A stretch of 60,252 bases of DNA, from IMG/VR virus record IMGVR_UViG_2562617057_000007; one strand, given 5' to 3'. The position numbers were made by a program, and so were the translations under genes. Shown in pieces: positions 1-35,645 of this stretch; the stretch's first letter is position 1, and each line of letters begins with the position of its first letter. This stretch comes from a virus (Duplodnaviria > Heunggongvirae > Uroviricota > Caudoviricetes). The notes under the pieces are model-generated. The model ran no database searches, was not told the DNA's origin, and saw nothing but the letters and a program-made list of their open reading frames with translations.

Positions 1-270
<270 letters not shown>

Positions 271-475
271 TTACCGTTAAATCATTTTAAAATCAGTAAG
301 TTGTATCGAGTTTATATGCTTTACTGTCATTAACTTACTGTATGTTGATCCAGTGTATTTAACCCTGATAAACTCAGTCCAGTAACACAAAGCCGCAACA
401 CATTGCATTTTGTCCCGTAGAAAAGACTTGTATGTGTGAGCTTGTTTTCTGCGCCTACGCAGATAAGGATTGAGA

Positions 476-1873
476 ATGCCGCGCACTGTAACACATAATC
501 CGGATAGCCCCAATAATGACGATGTTTTAGCCGCATCTGAAAAATGGGACGCCTGTAAACCCCCCTATACCAGCGCACACATGAAAATCTGTGTTGCTGC
601 CGCCAAAATCATCCTCGCTGCTTCCGGCGTGGCTCGTCGTTCCAAATACGAAAAAGAGAACTATCTCCGTATCGATTTCAGCAAAGCCGGTAAGGTTACA
701 TTTTACGCCGAGTATCCAAAAAAGATGGGCCTCAAAGGTAAAAAGCTTGGCGAGTGGCCGGAGCTCGCTATCCAGCTGGCGCGCGAAAAAGCACTAGGTA
801 TGGCTGACGGTGGACTGCGGGCAGAGTCCGTACATGCAGCGCTGGAAATGTACCGGGATGACCTCAAAGCCAAAGTCGCCCGGCAGAAGCTGAGCCCGGA
901 CAGTTTCACAACCTACGGGGTGCGTATCGACCGGATTAAAGCAACGTTCGGCGAGCGCGAGGTGTTCAGCGACGTAACATACAATCGGCTGGTGGAAGTA
1001 CTGGACGAGTGGATCGCCACTCGCTCGAACAATAACGCCCTGGAGTTGTTTGCCGAGCTCCGTCGGTTCTGGAAGTTCTGCGCACCTACTCTTTGCAACG
1101 GCCGCAATGTTGCCGCCAGTCTGCCAGATGATTATGTTTCCTCCCGCGTACAGAAACCTACCCCCACACGGCTTTTTACCGATATTGAATCAATCGCCCG
1201 ACTCTGGCTCAATGTTGCTGCCTGCACCTCTGTACACCAGAAGAATGCTGTTCGCTTCATGATCATCACCGGCGTTCGTCCGATTAATGTCCATAACCTG
1301 CGCTGGGACTACGTTCACGAGGAGACTGGCGAAATTGTTTATCCTGAAGGGGTTATCGGCATGCGAGGGGCTATGAAAACACAAAAGGCTTTCCGCCTGC
1401 CAATAACGCCGGAGATCCGGCGGATTATCGACGAGCAGAAAGCCTGGCGTGATTCAGTTCCTGAGTGCAACAGGGATTATGTATTTTTGCAGCCACGTGA
1501 TCCAATGCAGCCATTTTCAAAACGGTCACTGGATAAGCTGGTGAAAACATACAGCCCGGACGGGGCTGTAAAAGGAATAAAACATGATGGGACTGTTAAA
1601 GGGAAAGACGGTGCATTTAATACGATGTGCCGTAAATTCCTTAAGAGCAATGTTATTGCCTTGATGAAGGAAAGAGGCTATTCCCGATCAGACCGAAGGG
1701 AAATCAGCCTCCTTTGCCTTCACCACTCCAGCAAGTCAGATGACCCGATGGCAGAACATTACGACTTTTCTGATGAGATTTTACAGGAAGAGATTGCGTT
1801 AAAGCGCGAAGCTTTCGAGGCTCACGAGCGGAGCATACTTGCGCAGGTTGCATTGCTACGGCGGCGAGGTTAA
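476..1873 (+). CDS. phage-type tyrosine integrase
   Basis: about 465 aa; C-terminal region has integrase-like R (ITGVRPIN) and terminal HY motifs; AGGA-like RBS before ATG at 476 (ORF track begins at TTG 470); converges on an AlpA-like gene. Confidence 0.75.
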   Translation: MPRTVTHNPDSPNNDDVLAASEKWDACKPPYTSAHMKICVAAAKIILAASGVARRSKYEKENYLRIDFSKAGKVTFYAEYPKKMGLKGKKLGEWPELAIQLAREKALGMADGGLRAESVHAALEMYRDDLKAKVARQKLSPDSFTTYGVRIDRIKATFGEREVFSDVTYNRLVEVLDEWIATRSNNNALELFAELRRFWKFCAPTLCNGRNVAASLPDDYVSSRVQKPTPTRLFTDIESIARLWLNVAACTSVHQKNAVRFMIITGVRPINVHNLRWDYVHEETGEIVYPEGVIGMRGAMKTQKAFRLPITPEIRRIIDEQKAWRDSVPECNRDYVFLQPRDPMQPFSKRSLDKLVKTYSPDGAVKGIKHDGTVKGKDGAFNTMCRKFLKSNVIALMKERGYSRSDRREISLLCLHHSSKSDDPMAEHYDFSDEILQEEIALKREAFEAHERSILAQVALLRRRG

Positions 1874-2070
1874 TACTGGCTGCGACACTTTTGAATAAAA
1901 GCGTCGACATTTCGGCGCTCATAACGAACTACTTTTGCACTGAAACGAATTGGTGCCAGGATAGCCCGATGACGATGCTTAATATTCCACTCACATAGCG
2001 TTTTTTGTGTAATACCTAACTTTTGGCATACTTCATCCGGGGTGAGTAAATCGTCGGGTTTCTCGCTCAT
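1870..2070 (-). CDS. AlpA-family excisionase-like DNA-binding protein
   Basis: 66 aa small HTH protein (LTPDEVCQKLGITQKTLCEW), typical size and position next to an integrase; 4 nt overlap with upstream helicase gene. Confidence 0.7.
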   Translation of the reverse strand: MSEKPDDLLTPDEVCQKLGITQKTLCEWNIKHRHRAILAPIRFSAKVVRYERRNVDAFIQKCRSQY

Positions 2071-3461
2071 GCTATACCTCTCTTTTTCATGGCATCGAGC
2101 AGGATGTCCTGCACTGTTCGTTTTGAGTTGCGCCGCTCCATCACCATTTCGTCCATAGTGTCGGCAGCAATAATGTGGTGAATAAATACCGGACGATTGT
2201 GTCCGGCCTGTATCTGCCTGGTGGGGCCGATACGTTCAATAATTTGCTGATACTGCTCCAGGTCCCACCAGTGTGAGAAAAATACCAGTATATTTCCGCC
2301 GTCCTGCATGTTCAGACCGTGGCCCGCGCTGGCTGGGTGTGCAAAGAGAACAGGAATCTTTCCGGAATTCCAGTCACGTAGTGTCTGTGGATCCTGGTCG
2401 AGGTGACGACCGCGAGGAAATGCTTTAAGCAAGCGTTCAAGATCGTGTTTCCAGTGATAAGCAACCAGCACAGGCGCGCCAGCTGCTTCGGTCAGTATGC
2501 TGTCCAGCGCCTGTAGTTTGGTGTCATGCAGTTCTGACCAACTTCCGGTGTCGTCTGTGTATACTGCGCCACTGGCGATTTGAAGACACTTTTGCGTCTT
2601 TGCCGCAGCGTTTGGCGCTTCGATGCTTTCGCCGTTCAGCTCGAGGAACATTTCCTTTTCCATTTCACGATACTGCTGACGTGCCTTCGGCGGCATATCC
2701 ACGCGGACCACGTTATGAACGGGCTCTCTGACATCGAACCAGTCGGCCGCATCCAGCGAGAGGGTCACATCGGCTAACGCTCGCTGTATTTCAGCCTGTG
2801 AGTGAGCAAACGGCTCCAGTTTGGTCCAGCTCTGCCCCGGAAACTGTATCGAGTTGAACCAGCGTGAGGTAAACGCGCCGTAAGTGCGCCCGAGACGTTG
2901 CCCCTGGTCCACAAACCACGATTGTCCCCACAAATCTACCAGGCCGTTCGGTGCTGGCGTACCAGTGAGATTTATCCAGCGCCGGACATACTTATGCGCC
3001 ACTTTGCCCAGCGCCGCCGCGCGCTTACCACCACCTCGCAGCCGGAAGGATTTTAGCCGGGTGCTTTCATCTGGAATGACAGTACCGAACGGCCATTGTT
3101 CTCCCAATTCTTCAACCAGCCAGACAAGGTTATCGTAGTTGATGGTGAACACGCTTGCGTTGCTGTTCGCCAGCGCCGTAGAGCGCGCTTTGGCATTACC
3201 AACAATCGGCTGTACCTCGATATTGCGCAGATGCTCCCATTTCAGCGCTTCATCCGGCCATGTGCTTGCTGCAACGCGTAGCGGCGCGAGGACCAGCGCG
3301 GGGCGTGTTTCTGTTCCAGCCATGAAAAGATCTTCCAGCGTGGTGAGTGTTGCTACGGTTTTACCCATTCCCATCCCCGCCCAGATGTTGCCGCGCAGGG
3401 TTTCGATTTGGTGATTGATGATCAGGTCTTGATACGGGCGGGGGGTGAAAATTTGTCCCAT
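2067..3461 (-). CDS. SNF2-family helicase-like ATPase
   Basis: 464 aa; Walker A GMGKT, DExx box (IPDESTR), LTGTP motif, C-terminal helicase motifs (HPASAGHGLN, QQIIERIGPTRQ). Confidence 0.8.
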   Translation of the reverse strand: MGQIFTPRPYQDLIINHQIETLRGNIWAGMGMGKTVATLTTLEDLFMAGTETRPALVLAPLRVAASTWPDEALKWEHLRNIEVQPIVGNAKARSTALANSNASVFTINYDNLVWLVEELGEQWPFGTVIPDESTRLKSFRLRGGGKRAAALGKVAHKYVRRWINLTGTPAPNGLVDLWGQSWFVDQGQRLGRTYGAFTSRWFNSIQFPGQSWTKLEPFAHSQAEIQRALADVTLSLDAADWFDVREPVHNVVRVDMPPKARQQYREMEKEMFLELNGESIEAPNAAAKTQKCLQIASGAVYTDDTGSWSELHDTKLQALDSILTEAAGAPVLVAYHWKHDLERLLKAFPRGRHLDQDPQTLRDWNSGKIPVLFAHPASAGHGLNMQDGGNILVFFSHWWDLEQYQQIIERIGPTRQIQAGHNRPVFIHHIIAADTMDEMVMERRNSKRTVQDILLDAMKKRGIA

Positions 3462-3504
3462 AGTGTTTTAGCCAGTAGGGCGCGGGTAATCCCGCGCAAT
3501 AATG

Positions 3505-4311
3505 TCAGATTAGATCGGTGTAGTAGGTGAAGTTGCCAAACTGCGGATGTGTCCAGCGCTTGCGGTTACCTTTCGGCGGTGTCGATTCGTTTAACAGCTT
3601 TTGAGCTGCTTGTTCGATCGCTGGGAGCTTAACGAGCAATCCCCGAACACCGGTGTCTGAACGTACCGGTATCCTGGCGAAGCCGATCAATTTCCGGCAT
3701 GTTGAATCAGATAAACCTGTTTTCCATGCTGCTTTGCTGACGGGGACATATTCACCGTTACTGTGTGGTTGTGACTCTCTGACTTGTTGTTTTAAGTCTT
3801 CTACCCAGTTGGTTTCATGTCCCAGAGTTGAAAGCGTTACGTTTTGAACTTGCCGGGGAGCCATCACTTCGACAATTGCTTTCATCGTTGCGGATGCCGT
3901 AGCTTCTGCAACGACACGGGCAAACTGAACGATGTTGTCGTTTACCTGAATTGCAGGAGTTGGCACTGGTAATGATGCCGGACGAGGTTGCTCTAATTCA
4001 ATCTTCATCGCCTGCCACTGTTCGATGAGTGCCAGCCGGCGTTTTGCGTCGTAACCGGTGACGAGAGTCATGGAAAGATTTTCATCAAGCCAAATCTCGT
4101 CGATGACATCACGTCCCTTGTATTCTTTGCGCTTGATAATAAATCCTTTAAAATCATCATAATCCAAATCTGGACTATAGATTTGTAACTGTTCAAGCAT
4201 AGCCAGAATATCCCGTACAACATGCTTATGCTGTTTGCCAGTGACTTCTGCAATTTTCCGGCTGCCCATCATTGGTTGCTTGGTATCGTTTATCAGTGTT
4301 AAAGTATTCAT
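3505..4311 (-). CDS. Rha-family phage regulatory protein (antirepressor-like)
   Basis: N-terminal Rha signature GSRKIAEVTGKQHKHVVRDI; start placed at MNTLTL (ORF track extends to 4353). Confidence 0.7.
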   Translation of the reverse strand: MNTLTLINDTKQPMMGSRKIAEVTGKQHKHVVRDILAMLEQLQIYSPDLDYDDFKGFIIKRKEYKGRDVIDEIWLDENLSMTLVTGYDAKRRLALIEQWQAMKIELEQPRPASLPVPTPAIQVNDNIVQFARVVAEATASATMKAIVEVMAPRQVQNVTLSTLGHETNWVEDLKQQVRESQPHSNGEYVPVSKAAWKTGLSDSTCRKLIGFARIPVRSDTGVRGLLVKLPAIEQAAQKLLNESTPPKGNRKRWTHPQFGNFTYYTDLI

Positions 4312-4370
4312 GCTGTATTCTTCATTCAGTAAAAGATGCGCTGGTAGCTGCAACTATCAGCGCGTTTTGT

Positions 4371-4547
4371 TTATTCATCCCACGGCTTGTTTGCAGCTTC
4401 CCTTGCGGCCTGCTGCGCAAAATAAATCAATTCAAAAGCTAACTGCTCTCCTTTTTCCAGCGAACTGAGAAGTCTTGCTGTTTCCAGCATGTCCGCGATA
4501 TACCCGAAAATATCTGCCTGATGTAACTGCGTGATCTGAATAGCCAT
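4371..4547 (-). CDS. hypothetical small protein, first gene of leftward operon
   Basis: 58 aa from MAIQITQLH; GAGGT RBS 8 nt upstream; longer ORF to 4619 would read through the operator palindromes. Confidence 0.45.
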   Translation of the reverse strand: MAIQITQLHQADIFGYIADMLETARLLSSLEKGEQLAFELIYFAQQAAREAANKPWDE

Positions 4548-4563
4548 AGCGTTAACCTCGATA

Positions 4564-4627
4564 GAACCACGGTGGTTCATTTTTAGTAAACCACCGTGGT
4601 TCATTGATGTCAACACCACCGTGGTGC
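4564..4627. promoter_or_regulatory. three 15 bp operator-like palindromes in divergent promoter region
   Basis: GAACCAC-G-GTGGTTC (4564..4578), AAACCAC-C-GTGGTTC (4588..4602), ACACCAC-C-GTGGTGC (4613..4627), centres about 24 bp apart; overlapping candidate -35 TTGATG (4604..4609) and -10 CATAAT (4626..4631) for the rightward gene. Confidence 0.6.
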
Positions 4628-4661
4628 ATAATTTGGTGATTGAGTTTATGAGGTGTTTGCT

Positions 4662-5006
4662 ATGAGTCGTGAAGATGCACAGATGAAGATCCGTTTACCT
4701 GCGGAGCTGAAAGCGCAGTTAGAAAAAGCAGCTCTGGAAAATAAGCGGTCTATGAATGCGGAAGTACTCCATCGTCTCAAAGAAAGCTTTAATGTTTTAG
4801 TTCACATAACATATAAAGATTCCGAGGGGGAGTTATCAGATAGTAATACCTGGAAGCGTTTTTTGGAATCATCTGAACATGGTGATGAATATAAAAAAGG
4901 CTTTGTTAAGCTTGTCAAAGAAAAATATAAACTTGATAAGGAAAATGAGAGGTTATATAGCTTAATTATAAGCTATTTGAACCCCACAAAGAGTGAAGAT
5001 GATTAG
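4662..5006 (+). CDS. ribbon-helix-helix (Arc/MetJ-like) DNA-binding protein with AT-rich C-terminal extension
   Basis: N-terminus MSREDAQMKIRLPAELKAQLEKAALENKRSMNAEVLHRLKESF is a classic RHH fold signature; GAGGTG RBS 6 nt before ATG 4662. Confidence 0.7.
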   Translation: MSREDAQMKIRLPAELKAQLEKAALENKRSMNAEVLHRLKESFNVLVHITYKDSEGELSDSNTWKRFLESSEHGDEYKKGFVKLVKEKYKLDKENERLYSLIISYLNPTKSEDD

Positions 5007-5136
5007 TTTGTGTTTGTAAGTCTGAATAATATTTCTGCATTTACTGAACGCATATTTTTCTTTGCTGTTTTCTTTAACTCCTCCGCTAATGCGCGGGGGA
5101 CCCGTAATTTAAACTGTAAGTGCTCATCTGATTTTT

Positions 5137-5406
5137 TCACAATATTCCCTCCAGATTTTTGCTATCCAGCACCACTACGGTAAAGCCCAGTTTTCGCAGA
5201 CGTTCATGTTCGCGCAATTGGTCAGGCCGTGGTGGCTTGCCGGGAGATTTACATTCAACGAAAACGATACGACCACCTGGTAGCAGGACAATGCGATCCG
5301 GTACCGAGCGGTGACCGGGAGATACAAACTTAAAGGCCACTCCGCCAGCTTTTTTCACTTCAGCGACGAGGTGCTTTTCGATAAGGCTTTCACGTTCATA
5401 GGCCAT
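5137..5406 (-). CDS. VRR-NUC domain nuclease
   Basis: PD-(D/E)xK-type motif region DRIVLLPGGRIVFVECKSPG; start placed at MAYERE. Confidence 0.75.
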   Translation of the reverse strand: MAYERESLIEKHLVAEVKKAGGVAFKFVSPGHRSVPDRIVLLPGGRIVFVECKSPGKPPRPDQLREHERLRKLGFTVVVLDSKNLEGIL

Positions 5407-5695
5407 CTGAATCCCACTCTTCAAAAAGCACATTCAATTCCAGTTTCTCTGCCAACGCGTTTTCTGCACGTGCGCCAGCAGAGTACTCCCACTCTTTGAG
5501 CATATAAATCGTATCGGCACAGCGAAGCATTGCGAGGCAGATGTCCATATACTGAGCCTGTGTCAAACCATTGGGTAAAGTTGCGGGGTTAAGCACAACA
5601 TATCCCTTGTCCGTTAGCCTCTTTGCTGCGGAATGAAAAGCCGGGCGGTTAAATTGTTCGTAACCGCTCATAGGCCCGGCAACGTAAACGATCAT
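5396..5695 (-). CDS. DUF4406 (nucleoside deoxyribosyltransferase-like) phage protein
   Basis: N-terminus MIVYVAGPMSGYEQFNRPAFHSAAKRL matches DUF4406 pattern. Confidence 0.7.
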   Translation of the reverse strand: MIVYVAGPMSGYEQFNRPAFHSAAKRLTDKGYVVLNPATLPNGLTQAQYMDICLAMLRCADTIYMLKEWEYSAGARAENALAEKLELNVLFEEWDSDGL

Positions 5696-5907
5696 TCTTC
5701 GACCGCCTTACGCTTTTCACGCATATTCTGCATCAGGCAAAAATCAGATCTGCGTTCACTCCATTCCTGATTCAGTTCGTGATGTGATTCGCGGTTGGCT
5801 TTTGCCCAGGCCTTCGCTGCCCGGTCATATTCGCCGGACTGCTCAAGGCGCAAGGCCTCCCTCGCAGCCCGGTAATAAAGTGGGCTGTCCCGATATTTAA
5901 ATGACAT
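5692..5907 (-). CDS. hypothetical phage protein
   Basis: 71 aa ORF translationally coupled (4 nt overlap) to downstream gene; no recognised motif. Confidence 0.5.
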   Translation of the reverse strand: MSFKYRDSPLYYRAAREALRLEQSGEYDRAAKAWAKANRESHHELNQEWSERRSDFCLMQNMREKRKAVEE

Positions 5908-5959
5908 AGCTTTCGAGTCCTGTAAAAAGCCCCTGACTGAGCAGGGGCGAATTGAAGGA

Positions 5960-6724
5960 TTAACGGGGTAACTCTGGTGGAATATATCTGCCGATGCGGT
6001 CTTCTATGGTCGGCAGAATGCACATGCTGTCGTTAAAGCGGTCATGCAGTTTGTAGACCAGTTTCGAATCCATTTTTTCGAGAGCAGGCATTAACTGCGC
6101 TCGCCAGATTTCATTAATACGTCGGAAGTTATGACAGACGGCGCGGAGATTGTTGATGAACATTTCCTTCTCTGCGTCATTGATTGCTGTCTGCACTTTC
6201 TGAATACGCTTTGTGCTGCCGTTCCGGTAAAAGTCCTTCTGCGCAGCGACAGCCTCATCCACGGATGGATAACACCCTACGTAAACGCTTTTCTCTCCGT
6301 TCCATGCGTAGGCTCTGTACGGGTTGTATTTGCTCTGGTGATGGTAAACCATCTTCGGCAGGCACTCCCTGTGCGGCGCCAGTATCGTGGAGGACTGCTG
6401 GTGCAGTTTGCGTTCGCATTCGATGAAGTATCGGCGTATCTGGCGACCTTTTTCGTTACGCTCGACCATCGCCAGTTCTTTGGCTGTATCGAGGGTGAGG
6501 TGGTAGTCCTTACAAAGAACATTTTTACGCTTTCCAGTTTTGGAAAACGTTACGATATAATCATGATTTTCAACGAATTTATAGTCTGCAATTCGTGATG
6601 TAATCCATGCTGCAAACACTTTCCCTACCCCAAGGAATGCGTGCAGATCGCGAGCATTGCAGAGCAGGGTGATTTCGTTGGCGATAGCGCCGTTGAAAAC
6701 GGGGATGAGTTGAGCTGCCATCAC
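5960..6724 (-). CDS. AntA-domain antirepressor-like protein
   Basis: AntA signature DYHLTLDTAKELAMVERNEKGRQIRRYFIECE in N-terminal half. Confidence 0.8.
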   Translation of the reverse strand: MMAAQLIPVFNGAIANEITLLCNARDLHAFLGVGKVFAAWITSRIADYKFVENHDYIVTFSKTGKRKNVLCKDYHLTLDTAKELAMVERNEKGRQIRRYFIECERKLHQQSSTILAPHRECLPKMVYHHQSKYNPYRAYAWNGEKSVYVGCYPSVDEAVAAQKDFYRNGSTKRIQKVQTAINDAEKEMFINNLRAVCHNFRRINEIWRAQLMPALEKMDSKLVYKLHDRFNDSMCILPTIEDRIGRYIPPELPR

Positions 6725-6884
6725 AGTTACCTCTAACGGTGAAATTCACCGCCACCACTGAGTTGCAAATCTCATATGGGTGGCGAACTGACGAGGTTTG
6801 CAATACCGGCGTTAGAGGAAACCGGCGCGCCGAAGCGCCCCCGCCAGCCCGCCATAATGCGAACGTGGCAAAGCTTGCGACAAT

Positions 6885-6904
6885 AAAAAAGACGCTGGCG
6901 CGTC
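6885..6904 (-). terminator. candidate rho-independent terminator
   Basis: minus-strand hairpin GACGC-GCCA-GCGTC followed by TTTTTTATT; lies downstream of the PolA fragment. Confidence 0.4.
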
Positions 6905-7202
6905 TGGTGTCGCCCCTAACAATTCCGGGTTGCAAATCCCGATCTCCATTTGGGAGATTCGGTGAGCATAAACCGGAAGGGGGTGATGAGTCAATATCGG
7001 GGTAGCAGGGCGGTCGGGTACTTGAACACCGCAGCAAGTCGGCCCGTATCCTTAGCCTTTCGGCTGTTTTTCGGTATACGCGCTACCCGACCATATCTGA
7101 AAATGGACATAAAAAATCCGCATGACTGACGGGCGCGGTTTCCGCTTGCTGTGGTGTGTTCAGCACCATGAAGCGGAATATACCTATTGGTCATCGCGGA
7201 TG

Positions 7203-8135
7203 TCAATCTTTCCGGTATCTGTAAGATTCGAATCCTCCGGCGTTTAGTGGAATGCTCGTGGCCCAGTCAGGAACGGTTGCCAGTAACTGGCTGACATGTT
7301 CTGCTGAGTAATCGGGTGAGTCAGGGGCCTCACTTATAATTTCATCGTGTACCGTCAGCACAATGCTGTAACCGGCATCTTCGATAAGCGGCATGTTTCC
7401 GGCCAGAACGTCGCGGGCGGCCGCCTGGGTGACGTTCTCCACCAGCTTTCCGCCGTAGGTTTTGAGTCGTTGCCATTTACGCGAATAAGAGTTAACACCC
7501 ATATAGGTGATATTCCCTTTTTCGATAACCGGAGACGGGTAGCATACAGCGCGTCCGGATGGTAGCTGTATGCGCAGCCACGCGCCATCGCGGCGGATTT
7601 TAAGATAACCGCAATACAATGTTTTTTGCGGTGTGGCGATTGCAGTGCGGACGGTGCGCTCCAGTTCGTACCAGAAATCGCAGGTCGCCGGGTGCGCCCT
7701 GCGCCAGAGACGTTTAAGTGAGTCGCAGGCGATAAATACCCGTTCAGAAAGGCCGTAGGTTGACTTACGTTTAACCGATTCGTAGTACCAGCTTTTCGCC
7801 TCGCGGATAACATCGCGGGGAATGTTTGGCAGTGCGGCGTTCGCCAGCTCGTCGAGATCGAGACTGTAAACCAGTGCAAAAGTGATGAAGGCCGACACAC
7901 CACCACCGTACCCGCAGTTGTGAACGATTAAATGTCCTGAGTCGGTTTTAATCGTGAATCTGTTTCGAGGCCCCGCATGTGCAATGTCGTAAACATCGCT
8001 CCAGCTCGTCGATACGTTTTTGCAGGTCTGCGATTTTTCTTCTGTTGCGGTTATTGTCTGCTTTGGAGACGAACTGGATATTACCCGGTTCGTAGCCTTT
8101 GTTATTGTCGATGCGATCCATTTCCAACTACCCAA
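7203..8135 (-). pseudogene. C-terminal fragment of a family A (PolA-type) DNA polymerase
   Basis: Contains Pol I motif B-like GYGGGVSAF, NxxQG-AAD-like VTQAAARDV and motif C LTVHDEI; N-terminal exonuclease and most of the polymerase domain absent; first about 40 codons of the ORF lack homology. Confidence 0.6.
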
Positions 8136-9221: not shown

Positions 9222-10592
9222 ATGTCTCAGATGTATATACTCGACCAGTTGAGTGTTGCTCCAAACCGGCGGATTTGGACATTGGTTGACGCCACTACTA
9301 ACTTACCGCTTCTGTTTCCACTTCTCTTTCTCATTGATCGCTTGTCTTTACGTTCCGAATCCACGCAGTCATCTACGCTACAGGCTCTAAAATTTTTTTA
9401 TGAGTACTGGTATCAAAAACATGATGTTACTTTCTGTTTGAGCTTCCATCTGTCTGGATACAATCCTTCGATTGCAATTAGTGAGATTGAAGCATTTCTT
9501 CATTATCTTGAATCAGGAAAGCTTGTGTTGCCTACACTCGGACGCGCTGTAATTAGCAAGCACAATACAAATATTAATCATGTACATGCAGTCTGCCGTT
9601 TTATCAACTATCTGATCAATACTTACGTTTCTCCTCGTTATATGGATGGTACCCCAAAAGAACTTTCTCGTTACGCTTTACAATTATCCAGGCGTTTGTC
9701 GGCCTATCGTTCGGATTTTCGACCCAGCAAGCAAAAGCATTCAAACAAACATTTTAATAGCCTTACAGCAGACATGGTCAGGAAATTTTATGAGATTATT
9801 AGACCAGAATCGTCTTCCAAGCCAAATCCTATTAATCCCTTCCCTACTGGAGAAATTCAATTCAGAAATTATTTAATCTGTCGCCTTCTTTTGAATTATG
9901 GTTTGCGTGTAAGTGAATTGCTTTTGTTAGAAAAAAACTCAATTAAACCTAACATCAAGGGCGTACAGTTCAGTATCATAGTGACGTCTGTAGATGATGA
10001 TGTTAGAGATCCAAGAAAGAGATTACCGTCATTAAAAAACTCATGGGCGCATCGAGTTTTAGCGTTAGACATAAATGATTACAACCACTTAAAAACATAC
10101 ATTGATAAAATAAGGAAAAAAACCTCTCATAGTTTCATATTCACTTCAACTAAAAATAACACTCCACCACTATCGTATCACTCTATATATGATATTTTCT
10201 CAAAAATTGATTGTGCTTTCAAAAAAGAGTACCCGCAATTCAGTGATGAAGAAAGCATTGATTCTGTAGTTAGCATAACCCCACACGTAGCTCGCCATAC
10301 ATGGGCTTATTTGATCTTAAAGAGAGTCTATACTGATAAATATCAGTCTGTTATGAGAAGTTGCCAGCTTGCAGGAGTTGATTTCGCTATTGCAGGTCTG
10401 ATGAGTGAAGCCAAAGATGAGCTCCGTCTTTTAGGTGGATGGAGCCATAATAGCCGCATGCCAGAACTCTATGCCCGCCGTTTTCTTTCTGAGCGAGCTA
10501 ATTTTTCCAATCTCACGCGTATTGCTGCTGATGCCTCAGAAGATGATTTTTTTTCATCTATACATCAAGCGTTTAGGGAAACGACCAAGTGA
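9222..10592 (+). CDS. tyrosine recombinase-like protein 1
   Basis: 456 aa; GLRVSE (box I Arg), HVARHTWA, GGWSH, ELYARRF (catalytic Tyr). Confidence 0.8.
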   Translation: MSQMYILDQLSVAPNRRIWTLVDATTNLPLLFPLLFLIDRLSLRSESTQSSTLQALKFFYEYWYQKHDVTFCLSFHLSGYNPSIAISEIEAFLHYLESGKLVLPTLGRAVISKHNTNINHVHAVCRFINYLINTYVSPRYMDGTPKELSRYALQLSRRLSAYRSDFRPSKQKHSNKHFNSLTADMVRKFYEIIRPESSSKPNPINPFPTGEIQFRNYLICRLLLNYGLRVSELLLLEKNSIKPNIKGVQFSIIVTSVDDDVRDPRKRLPSLKNSWAHRVLALDINDYNHLKTYIDKIRKKTSHSFIFTSTKNNTPPLSYHSIYDIFSKIDCAFKKEYPQFSDEESIDSVVSITPHVARHTWAYLILKRVYTDKYQSVMRSCQLAGVDFAIAGLMSEAKDELRLLGGWSHNSRMPELYARRFLSERANFSNLTRIAADASEDDFFSSIHQAFRETTK

Positions 10593-34025: not shown

Positions 34026-35645
34026 ATGCCGTTACCATTCCCCTTCGATTTTAAACATCCTGATTACCAGATGGTTTTTGAATGGCGGATGGAACGCCTA
34101 CAGCGCATTCGCCAGAATCCTGAAATATTGCCTGCACTAAAACAGTTTTACCGTACCAATCCGGCTCAGTTCATCATCGACTGGGGCATGACAACGGACC
34201 CGCGTAATATTGATTATGGCCTGCCGGTGACCATTCCGTTTTTACTCTTCCCTAAGCAGGAGGAGTGGATCCACTGGATTATGGAACGCTGGAGCAATCG
34301 GGAGAATGGTATTACCGATAAATCCCGTGAAATGGGGCTCAGTTGGACCGCGATCGGACTGGCCTGCTCGCTTTGTCTCTTCAACAAAGAAATGGTTATC
34401 GGTTTCGGCTCCCGTAAAGAGGAATACGTCGACAGCACCGGTGACCCGAAAGCATTGTTCTGGAAGGCGCGCAAGTTCGTGGAAACACTACCTGTAGAGT
34501 TTCGCGGTTCGTGGAGCGAGAAGAAGCACGCGCCATATATGCGTGTTGAGTTTCCTGAAACTGGCGCGGTTATCAAAGGTGAGGCTGGCGATAATATCGG
34601 TCGTGGTGACCGTACGACCCTTTATCTTGTGGATGAGGCTGCTTTTCTCCAGCGACCATTACTTATTGATGCCGCGCTTTCCCAGACAACCCGATGTCGT
34701 ATCGATCTCTCATCGGTTAACGGCATGAACAACCCCTTCGCACAGAAGCGGCACAGTGGAAAAATCCCGGTGTTTACGTTTCACTGGCGTAGCGATCCGC
34801 GTAAAGACGATGAGTGGTATCACAAGGAGTGCGAGAAAATTGATAACCCAGTCATCGTTGCCCAGGAACTGGATCTTAATTACCAGGCATCAGCAGAAGG
34901 CATCCTGATCCCCTCAGAATGGGTACAGGCTGCGGTTGATGCACATATCAGACTGGGCATTCAGCCCGGCGGCCAACGGCTTGGTGCAATGGATGTCGCC
35001 GACGAAGGGCGGGATAAAAACGCCTGTTCGCTCCGTTATGGCATCCTGCTGAATGACGTACAGGAGTGGTCAGGTAAGGGGAGTGACATCTATGACTCTG
35101 TGGTTAAGGTTTTTGGTCTGTGCGATGACTTTGGTGCCGATGAGTTTCGCTTTGATGAGGACGGATTGGGTGCTGGCGTTCGTGGTGATGCGCGCGCTAT
35201 CAACGAACTGCGTGAAGCGGAGGGCATCTGTCAAATCACCGCCACTCCATTCCGGGGCAGCGGGAGCGTGTTTCATCCTGAAAATGAAGCTGTTCCCGGT
35301 GATAATGGTAAACCGGCTCGTCTGAATAAGGACTTTTTTGTCAATGCCAAAGCCCAGGGGTGGTGGCATCTTCGCAAATTATTCCGCAATACATTTCGTG
35401 CACTACAGGGTATGGAGTATGACCCGGATGAGATTATTTCCATCAGCAGCACAATGGAAAATAAAGACCGGTTGTTGATGGAGCTGTCACAACCTACCTG
35501 GTCAAAAAATGCCACCGGAAAAATTCTTGTGGATAAGCAACCTGACGGAACGAAATCTCCAAACCTGGCTGATTCTGTGATGATTGCTTATGCCCCGATG
35601 GAAATGCCCATCGTAATTTCTGATGACTTTATGGAGTGGATCTGA
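34026..35645 (+). CDS. terminase large subunit
   Basis: 539 aa; ATPase N-terminal domain and nuclease C-terminal domain layout, followed by portal. Confidence 0.85.

Follow-up and report, generated by a model that had tools for sequence, protein, structure and literature searches.

In phages P1 and P7, the antirepressor of the immI operon is reportedly silenced by c4, an RNA cut from the leader, whose segments a′ and b′ pair with the sites a2 and b2 and so block translation at the first ribosome-binding site and hence the antirepressor (Citron & Schuster 1990). In prophage Gifsy-1, the isrK-orf45-anrP operon is transcribed, but its antirepressor gene anrP is not translated unless the RNA IsrK is given in trans, which results in a 139-fold activation (Hershko-Shalev et al. 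2016, PMC4825925). Here we compare with these systems a 478-bp gap, positions 6725..7202 of the IMG/VR virus record IMGVR_UViG_2562617057_000007, whose 60,252 nucleotides are called the window throughout. The gap is flanked by two minus-strand genes, a DNA polymerase remnant (pol, 7203..8135) and the prophage antirepressor gene antA. In all likelihood it is the minus-strand regulatory leader of antA and carries two tandem c4-type antisense-RNA modules, whose RNA families, structures, covarying complementarities and mosaic origin are demonstrated below. The locus is a known sort of phage immunity device, of the P1-immI/Gifsy-1-isrK type, and a replication origin is not supported.

The c4 system of phage P1 reportedly involves processing by RNase P and Rho-dependent polarity. 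In Gifsy-1, a stable processed RNA, STnc1160, arises from the C4 region; for the activation, the authors invoke a structural switch in which orf45 is translated, and they take the CI RNA of satellite phage P4 as an analogue and structural homologue of the isrK arrangement, c4 not being named (PMC4825925). With Rfam models, we located isrK in Gifsy-1 at 34316..34240 (79.3 bits), followed by a C4-family RNA at 34214..34131 (69 bits) and then by anrP. A third family that concerns us, sRNA-Xcc1 (RF02221), is described in the literature as a trans-acting, HrpG/HrpX-regulated and virulence-linked small RNA (sRNA) with direct targets not known. The founding RNA reportedly belongs to integron cassettes of Xanthomonas campestris. 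In Xanthomonas integrons, sRNA-Xcc1 lies upstream of the toxic gene symE, in the same orientation (bioRxiv 10.1101/2025.06.18.660453).

The C4 module of the probable antA leader

Positions 1..8129 of the window are 99.99% identical to a yfhL-adjacent prophage of Escherichia coli O121 strain 201805972. The initial annotation of the gap, made from the letters alone, had described a GC-rich intergenic segment with several hairpins and no credible coding sequence, which might encode a small RNA or be the relic of a replication origin; it had proposed structure prediction and a covariance search, and lack of both transcription and conservation of the paired segments in related prophages as an argument to the contrary. 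An Rfam scan of the whole 60 kb returned exactly three matches at or above the gathering score, all within the gap and all on the minus strand: sRNA-Xcc1 (E = 2e-11), C4 (E = 9e-12) and isrK (E = 5e-8). The minus-strand folds beat shuffled sequences, and the paired segments are conserved in related prophages. The idea of a small RNA was thus sound as far as it went, with three Rfam elements conserved and covarying in those prophages, but it missed the strand, the two tandem c4-type modules and the loops antisense to the antA ribosome-binding site. The GC content of the gap, 54.2%, does exceed the 49.8% of the window, though only modestly. Sub-threshold Rfam matches to RalA (18.6 against 170 bits) and to a group-II intron fragment (15.3 against 49 bits) were rejected as noise. 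The plus-strand reading of the hairpins was likewise rejected: their plus-strand folds are no better than shuffles (z −0.67 for the sRNA-Xcc1-type RNA and −1.62 for C4), and the Rfam matches are all on the minus strand, which is the strand of pol and antA.

The part of the gap next to antA comprises the following features, in the order of transcription:
6965..6994, minus strand: promoter P2 of the IsrK-like/C4/antA transcript, with −35 TTGACT (6994..6989), spacer 18 and −10 TATGCT (6970..6965); probable start at A6958
6885..6958, minus strand: IsrK-like short RNA of ~75 nt (Rfam RF01394, 50.9 bits against a gathering score of 50), with a hairpin at 6958..6942
6936..6930, minus strand: a1 decoy site UUUGCAA, displayed in the loop of CGGG/CCCG
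6920..6913, minus strand: b1 decoy site GUUAGGGG, complementary to b′ of C4 (repeats I4 and D3)
6905..6890 and U6 to 6885, minus strand: intrinsic terminator of the IsrK-like RNA, from the terminator scan
6776..6859, minus strand: C4 antisense RNA (Rfam RF01695, 70.6 bits against a gathering score of 45, model positions 1-87 of 87)
6818..6810, minus strand: b′, CCUCUAACG, the loop of C4 hairpin 2
6803..6797, minus strand: a′, UUGCAAA, single-stranded on the C4 3′ side
6719..6775, minus strand: antA leader with the cis targets a2, GGUGGCGG box and b2; fold of the leader hairpin z −3.20
6769..6763, minus strand: a2, UUUGCAA, complementary to a′
6756..6749, minus strand: GGUGGCGG, able to pair with the C4 3′ strand UCGCCACC (6786..6779)
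6738..6730, minus strand: b2, CGUUAGAGG, holding the Shine-Dalgarno sequence GAGG (6733..6730), 8 nt before ATG 6721
5960..6721, minus strand: antA, the regulated gene, an AntA/AntB-family antirepressor of 253 aa (Pfam PF08346, E = 2e-24)

The C4 RNA is made up of a long closing stem and two hairpins and ends in a 3′ tail CCACCC. Its minimum-free-energy fold coincides with the Rfam structure and is matched in stability by 0/200 shuffles (z −4.07); 15 of the 26 pairs show compensatory double changes among eight homologues. The hairpin-2 loop b′ and b2 are perfectly antisense over 9/9 nt, covering the antA Shine-Dalgarno sequence, while b′ and b1 pair over 9 nt when G-U is allowed, 8 nt of which form the b1 site. 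The strand a′ pairs over 7 nt with each of a2 and a1, which the repeat scan lengthens to arms of 11-12 nt. Indeed, this unbiased scan, which found four direct and eight inverted repeats in the segment, recovers the antisense/target arms as its top inverted repeats I1-I4 plus the direct repeat D3; I1 (13 nt, 92%) and I3 (11 nt, 91%) are the arms of the antA leader. Together with I8, these repeats represent one closing stem, described below, and four antisense/target arm pairs, and the short repeats left over (D1, D2, D4 and I5-I7) are at chance level. The a2..b2 pattern occurs once in the 60-kb window against 0.00 expected.

Two hairpins on the 5′ side, promoter P2 ahead of them and a final intrinsic terminator make up the IsrK-like unit, which is followed after 25 nt by the C4 RNA and then by antA. 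The hexamers of promoter P2 (9/12 consensus positions) and their spacing recur in the related locus L007 despite a different spacer sequence, and the start was placed at A6958 on the −10 to +1 spacing that P2 has in common with the Gifsy-1 promoter PisrK. A terminator-like hairpin had been noticed earlier at 6885..6904; it exists, as AGACGC/GCGTCT at 6890..6905, and since its U-run (6890..6885) lies on the minus strand, it terminates minus-strand transcription. Downstream, antA begins 55 nt past C4 on the same strand, at ATG 6721 (the start codon of the Prokaryotic Genome Annotation Pipeline, PGAP) or alternatively at GTG 6724, and its counterpart in the O121 prophage is annotated as 'phage antirepressor Ant'. 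The next gene (5692..5907, minus strand) encodes a 71-aa protein annotated as 'ANR family transcriptional regulator', whose match to PerC is weak and below the cutoff (E = 0.001); it is probably co-regulated with antA through the C4 leader.

As in P1/P7 c4, the RNA lies on the same strand in the leader of an antirepressor operon, with a closing stem, two hairpins and a single strand before the 3′ strand; downstream, the loop b′ is complementary to b2, at the ribosome-binding site, and the strand a′ to a2, and upstream the two segments find the further complements b1 and a1. The CCACC-type 3′ tail and the U/G 5′ end are likewise those expected of an RNase P substrate. Unlike P1, the window has no icd-like open reading frame (ORF): none lies between C4 and antA, and b2 sits directly on the antA Shine-Dalgarno sequence itself. 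The target also differs, being an AntA/AntB-family antirepressor of an integrated E. coli prophage rather than P1 Ant1/2, the a1/b1 sites belong to a separately terminated IsrK-like RNA, and a second c4-like RNA is found upstream. The same succession of elements, in the same geometry, is seen in Gifsy-1 isrK-orf45(STnc1160)-anrP (RF01394): promoter, hairpin, a1 in a loop, b1, terminator, C4-family RNA, a2, a box (GGUGGUGA, the GGUGGUG box of the comparison with the window), b2 with the Shine-Dalgarno sequence, and the antirepressor gene. Differences from Gifsy-1 are the lower isrK score of the window (50.9 against 79.3 bits), an ORF of 27 aa that ends away from antA instead of the coupled 45-aa ORF, and the neighbourhood, with pol and an extra sRNA-Xcc1-type module upstream in place of antQ and no isrJ downstream. 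The plan recalls P4 CI (seqA / CI(seqB) / seqC) as well, in which a leader-derived processed RNA pairs with repeated sites up- and downstream and shuts off downstream genes; P4 CI, however, works mainly through premature transcription termination in replication genes rather than by masking the Shine-Dalgarno sequence of an antirepressor gene, and the Rfam scan of the window gave no P4-like sequence or match.

By analogy with these homologues, processing, repression and anti-repression at the locus may be pictured as follows. Transcripts from promoter P2 would carry the decoys a1 and b1 first and mostly end at the intrinsic terminator, giving the IsrK-like short RNA. Read-through transcripts would contain C4, presumably excised by RNase P as in phage P1. 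The b′ and a′ segments of C4 would then pair with b2, over the antA Shine-Dalgarno sequence, and with a2, so that antA translation would be blocked, probably along with premature termination as in phage P1; in this proposal, the antirepressor would stay off and lysogeny would be maintained. The IsrK-like RNA, which bears the same target sequences, would titrate or displace C4 or antagonise the closed leader, consistent with Gifsy-1, where excess IsrK turns the antirepressor on. The balance between termination and read-through would set the antirepressor output.

Sequence hallmarks of RNase P cleavage, U(−1)/G(+1) where the stem begins and an A/G-C-C tail after it, are present in the sequences of C4 and of most sRNA-Xcc1-type copies, and release of the mature C4 by RNase P is presumed by analogy. 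The 5′ end of C4 also carries a conserved AUG (6855..6853), the A-U-G being invariant in eight homologues. Three homologues have an ORF of only 3 aa from it and two an ORF of 14 aa; the ORF reaches 27 aa in the window and 39-45 aa in L007 and Gifsy-1. An RNase P-type U(−1)/G(+1) site, taken with the A/G-C-C tail past the closing stem in both RNA families, accounts better for the conservation of the AUG. In Gifsy-1 (L073), the C4 5′ AUG at 34210 is the first start codon of orf45 (+107), so that the translated orf45 lies atop the C4-family RNA STnc1160.

The upstream sRNA-Xcc1-type module and the mosaic junction

The upstream part, from 7206 to 7004, repeats the same design on an sRNA-Xcc1-family RNA; this module has its own promoter and upstream sites, and neither downstream targets nor a gene of its own. 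It contains:
7177..7206, minus strand: promoter P1 of the upstream module, with −35 TTGACA (7206..7201), spacer 18 and −10 TATATT (7182..7177); probable start at ~A7169
7145..7168, minus strand: decoy sites a1*/b1*, defined by complementarity; inverted repeat I2 (13 nt, 92%) pairs 7145-7157 with 7026-7038
7111..7138, minus strand: T1*, a weak terminator-like hairpin, CCGCG (7138..7134) / UGCGG (7122..7118), then U6 (7116..7111)
7004..7092, minus strand: sRNA-Xcc1-family RNA (Rfam RF02221, 72.8 bits against a gathering score of 53, model positions 1-87 of 87)
7003..7004: recombination junction, where the BLAST query splits and the sequence common to the Xcc1 modules of GF4 and F451 stops at 7004

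Promoter P1 matches the consensus at 11/12 positions and its −35 hexamer overlaps the pol stop codon; it is identical in E. coli GF4 and in the IMG/VR locus L011, and is conserved at the equivalent place in Stx2a_F451. The decoy a1* (UGAACAC, 7162..7156) is displayed in the loop of the hairpin 7168-7164/7156-7152 and is followed by b1* (CAGCAAG, 7151..7145). T1* would, from its predicted fold, end a short decoy transcript, and a hairpin with a U-run stands at the same place in the modules compared, except in the L026/L029 type.

The sRNA-Xcc1-type RNA has a closing stem (7092..7084 / 7020..7012) and two hairpins, bounded by U(−1)/G(+1) on the 5′ side and a GCC tail on the 3′ side. This stem is what the initial annotation had seen as long-range complementarity: GGTCGGGTA (7012..7020) and TACCCGACC (7084..7092) are complementary over 9/9 nt (inverted repeat I8), on the minus strand. 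The enclosed AGCC-TTTC-GGCT, followed by GTTTTT, is indeed present at 7054..7065, and its AGCC/GGCT arms form the tip of hairpin 1. The hairpins were real, all of them on the minus strand, with coordinates that needed correction by at most 6 nt (the 9-nt pair had been placed at 7006..7014 and 7083..7091). CUUGCUG (7038..7032), the hairpin-2 loop b′*, is antisense to b1*, just as the adjacent single-stranded GUGUUCA (7029..7023), a′*, on the 3′ side is to a1*. The minus-strand fold has a z of −2.49, with 4/200 shuffles as good. MAFFT with RNAalifold gave a poor alignment of the copies, and covariance-model alignments were substituted; in alignment A4, fitted to the covariance model and holding 12 distinct sequences, 89.4% of the cells are paired, against 30-53% in slid controls, and 16 of the 22 pairs are double-changed, which 0/500 shuffles reach. 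The match to the full RF02221 model, the length of ~88 nt, the closing stem with two hairpins and the location on mobile DNA are all shared with the founding sRNA-Xcc1; unlike it, the window copy belongs to a prophage of E. coli, with pol and antA as neighbours, not to an integron, and its cis target is lost.

Indeed, a complementarity search found no a2*/b2* cis targets after 7004 nor elsewhere in the 60-kb window. Past the junction, the isrK-C4 module stands in place of the expected a2*/b2* and Bro-N gene. In GF4 and L011, the Xcc1 module is 97% identical to that of the window, with identical promoter and loops, and after ...GCCCUGCU come UGAACAC, CAGCAAGGA and then the ATG of a Bro-N antirepressor gene, b2* coinciding with its Shine-Dalgarno sequence. 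GF4 runs on across the junction point as ...GCCCTGCT / GAACACAGGG...CAGCAAGGACATAAGACTATG. Since GF4 and L011 keep a2*/b2* and the Bro-N gene, the window copy lost them exactly at 7004/7003, and was thus orphaned by recombination precisely at the 3′ end of the RNA. Such targets (a2*/b2*) at the ribosome-binding site of the gene that follows are present in the GF4, L011, F451 and RM10410 copies and missing from the window.

The complete 478-bp segment occurs in only 3 of 5,426 complete E. coli genomes, while the part from promoter P1 to Xcc1 and the isrK-C4 part occur separately in many prophages and Stx phages. The same junction is found with a different intact Xcc1 type (L006) and with a 5′-truncated Xcc1 stump (L004, L005 and L016), and not at all in L007. 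As far as the isrK-C4-antA unit is concerned, the upstream RNA can thus be exchanged or dispensed with. The orphan immunity RNA of the window would then either be left over from a recent event or silence, in trans, a matching antirepressor of foreign origin.

Some further arrangements were observed around such modules. Among 69 IMG/VR loci with AntA homologues, a C4 or Xcc1-type RNA ends ~40-65 nt ahead of the start codon. In a more distant viral contig with an AntA homologue (L019), the usual place of IsrK directly upstream of C4 (1773..1842) is taken by Rfam AaHKsRNA82 (RF02900, an Aggregatibacter sRNA), probably another named family matching the a1/b1 decoy RNA. Tandem units are seen as well: four Xcc1-type RNA and antirepressor units, ~530-660 nt apart and with separate loop/target codes, in L026 (1201..3137), and two in Stx2a_F451 (L002, 4092..4717). 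Five tandem copies are reported for a Xylella island in one paper. Deletion between tandem units would yield gene-less tandem RNAs such as the one of the window. Between the two modules of the window, the C4 hairpin-2 region (6814..6824) shows an 11-nt complementarity of 91% to the GGAAACCG box beside b1* (7136..7146; I5). As a target pairing of C4 hairpin 2 with the T1* region, this complementarity (8-11 nt) was rejected, being about the chance level for 500 nt; it could permit cross-talk between both modules.

On the pol side, the gene is intact in E. coli O121 201805972 (2,835 nt), and the similarity of the window to that prophage ends at 8129. Beyond this limit, up to ~10600, there are the fragment of an HNH-endonuclease-like ORF (7948..8127, minus strand) and an ORF of 456 aa (9222..10592, plus strand) with motifs suggestive of a tyrosine recombinase, which suggests that an insertion or rearrangement disrupted pol in the window.

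Loop/target codes and the sRNA-Xcc1 family

In all 15 modules inspected, the hairpin-2 loop matches the Shine-Dalgarno site and the 3′ single strand matches a site just past the RNA, and both target sites are repeated upstream, before a terminator. Cognate RNA/target duplexes beat non-cognate ones in 14 modules, downstream and upstream alike (permutation p ~5e-5). The Xcc1 backbone is ~90% identical between copies, yet the loop and both targets switch together, as in the following codes (loop / target):
window and GF4: CUUGCUG / CAGCAAG
Stx2a_F451: CUUUCGA / UCGAAAG
RM10410: CUUGUAU / AUACAAG
L039: CUAUAUC / GAUAUAG
This is the manner in which P1/P7 heteroimmunity shifts its specificity, by paired loop/target substitutions. 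Joint variation of loop and target is seen over dozens of modules.

A motif scan with one genome per species gave 80 loci from many Proteobacteria and some other phyla. The covariance model built in this analysis recognised 78 Xcc1-type RNAs in these loci, of which 66 distinct modules were searched for Watson-Crick complements of at least 7 nt to the hairpin-2 region, with non-cognate pairs as control:
site ending 0-14 nt before the next ORF start: cognate 35/66 (53%), non-cognate 2.6%
site within 140 nt upstream: cognate 74%, non-cognate 6.2%
The 35 downstream proteins are mostly of the antirepressor type (Bro-N 5, Rha 4, AntA 3, P22_AR 2, KilA-N 2, ORF6C 2, ANT 1), and among the others there are two SymE toxins and several helix-turn-helix proteins. 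In APSE phages, sRNA-Xcc1 is placed upstream of an ORF6N gene by a published account; the published symE and ORF6N positions fit the picture of a target on the next gene. The integron-type copies of Xanthomonas (L080, L091-L094, L141, L142, L146 and L147) have clear upstream loop complements at about −81 and −95, whereas within 80 nt downstream a site at a start codon is often not evident. These copies may be orphan-like, or may use another part of hairpin 2 (e.g. GUGCGGU/ACCGCAC at +49 in L092).

Rfam keeps sRNA-Xcc1 outside the C4 clan, and no paper in the literature searched links it to c4 or to antirepressor control; c4-a1b1, isrK and Xcc1 go unmentioned in the main text of Weinberg et al. 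2017 (PMC5737381). We consider it probable that the sRNA-Xcc1 family is a second structural class of c4-type immunity RNA, namely a leader-embedded antisense repressor, likely processed by RNase P, whose loop covers the ribosome-binding site of the next gene and which has upstream decoys and exchangeable codes. Its typical targets would then, with similar probability, be Bro-N, Rha, AntA, P22_AR and KilA-N antirepressors or the SymE toxin. It is doubtful that orphan copies such as that of the window persist because, as immunity RNAs without a target of their own, they turn off antirepressors of competing phages.

Alternative readings and meaning of the locus

Several observations weigh against reading the gap as an antirepressor leader with two c4-type modules. 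Promoter P2 is a modest match (9/12), the isrK score lies marginally above its gathering score (50.9 against 50, with 79.3 for Gifsy-1 itself), and the c4-a1b1 model (RF03163) stays below its own (29.8 against 46.7 bits, at 6971..6922, overlapping isrK), although the a1/b1 complementarities are present. The T1* hairpin is weak, its own fold not being significantly stable (z −0.35). The ORF from AUG 6855 has 27 aa and stops ~50 nt before antA, unlike the coupled orf45 of Gifsy-1, and the icd-type coupled ORF of phage P1 is absent. With a short uncoupled ORF and no icd, the details of de-repression may differ from those of Gifsy-1 and P1.

That the upstream RNA is a working immunity RNA, acting in trans on Bro-N-type (GF4-like) antirepressors of superinfecting or co-resident phages with CAGCAAGG/UGAACAC targets, is unlikely in our view, as is its corollary that such an RNA would widen prophage immunity or guard against cross-induction. 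In favour of function, the module is intact, with a strong promoter P1 (11/12 positions), 9/9 in the closing stem and 97% identity to the GF4 copy, which was called functional; the L006 lineage has a different intact Xcc1 type at the same junction, and the annotation table of Xylella fastidiosa De Donno shows the order Xcc1-isrK-C4 on one strand (PMC12189769). In P1/P7 immunity, moreover, c4-type RNAs act in trans. Against function, the stump in L004, L005 and L016 shows that the RNA is dispensable, its target is absent from the 60-kb window, and its own decoy a1*/b1*, being retained, would compete. The exact cognate target occurs in only one of the 5,426 complete E. coli genomes, which counts against our preferred reading too, and none of the three genomes with the arrangement of the window is among the 16 with a GF4-like a2*/b2*-bro segment. 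The rarity of the exact target and its absence from the three carrier genomes weaken a role in trans. A replication-origin relic, or chance hairpins and terminators after pol, is hardly conceivable: the segment adjoins a DNA polymerase gene and holds several hairpins, but the repeat scan found neither iterons nor tandem repeats, its significant repeats are the RNA stem and the antisense/target arms, three covariance models match with E from 1e-8 to 1e-11, the homologues covary, and the modules accompany antirepressor genes, not replication genes.

The isrK-C4 part could also be a positive switch of the Gifsy-1 type, in which an inactive folded leader is opened in trans by the IsrK-like RNA, translation of a small ORF hands ribosomes to antA, and C4 is no free antisense repressor. 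Mutational and footprinting data from Gifsy-1 indicate that orf45 must be translated and that the leader has two alternative structures (PMC4825925); the first orf45 AUG (+107) is the conserved C4 5′ AUG, which the window has at 6855, and the C4 3′ strand may pair with GGUGGCGG in an alternative hairpin (z −3.20). We nevertheless judge this rather improbable for antA. The upstream ORF is not conserved and stops ~50 nt short of antA in the window, which makes translational coupling unlikely; the invariant A-U-G suits an RNase P site (U −1, G +1) at least equally well; the b′/b2 pairing over the Shine-Dalgarno sequence co-varies in all modules, as a repressor requires; and Gifsy-1 itself has the processed stable RNA STnc1160 corresponding to C4. 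A small protein is a still remoter explanation, be it the 45-aa coding sequence (CDS) at 6949..6812 (minus strand), which PGAP annotates as hypothetical (WP_001300362.1) in the identical O121 genome, or the ORF of 27 aa that opens at 6855. Gifsy-1 orf45 was reportedly seen as a tagged protein (PMC4825925). The 45-aa CDS, however, has no Pfam match, begins inside the first hairpin of the IsrK-like RNA and extends through the intrinsic terminator into C4; in homologues, the conserved AUG opens ORFs of anything between 3 and 39 aa, and conservation tracks base pairs rather than codons. The CDS is probably a spurious call over structured RNA, and the earlier view that the gap holds no credible coding sequence is borne out.

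Read as the leader of antA, a gap that PGAP leaves empty or fills with a doubtful 45-aa CDS becomes the control region of a prophage antirepressor, and therefore a prophage induction switch. C4, isrK and sRNA-Xcc1, separately named Rfam families, appear to belong, as components or variants, to a single modular riboregulator found with antirepressor and toxin genes across Proteobacteria. If this is true, the sRNA-Xcc1 homologues of Xanthomonas, Xylella, APSE and Stx phages would be cis-linked immunity RNAs rather than virulence sRNAs, and the loop/target codes would be a simple predictor of mutual prophage immunity to antirepressors, with a bearing on the cross-induction of Stx phages.

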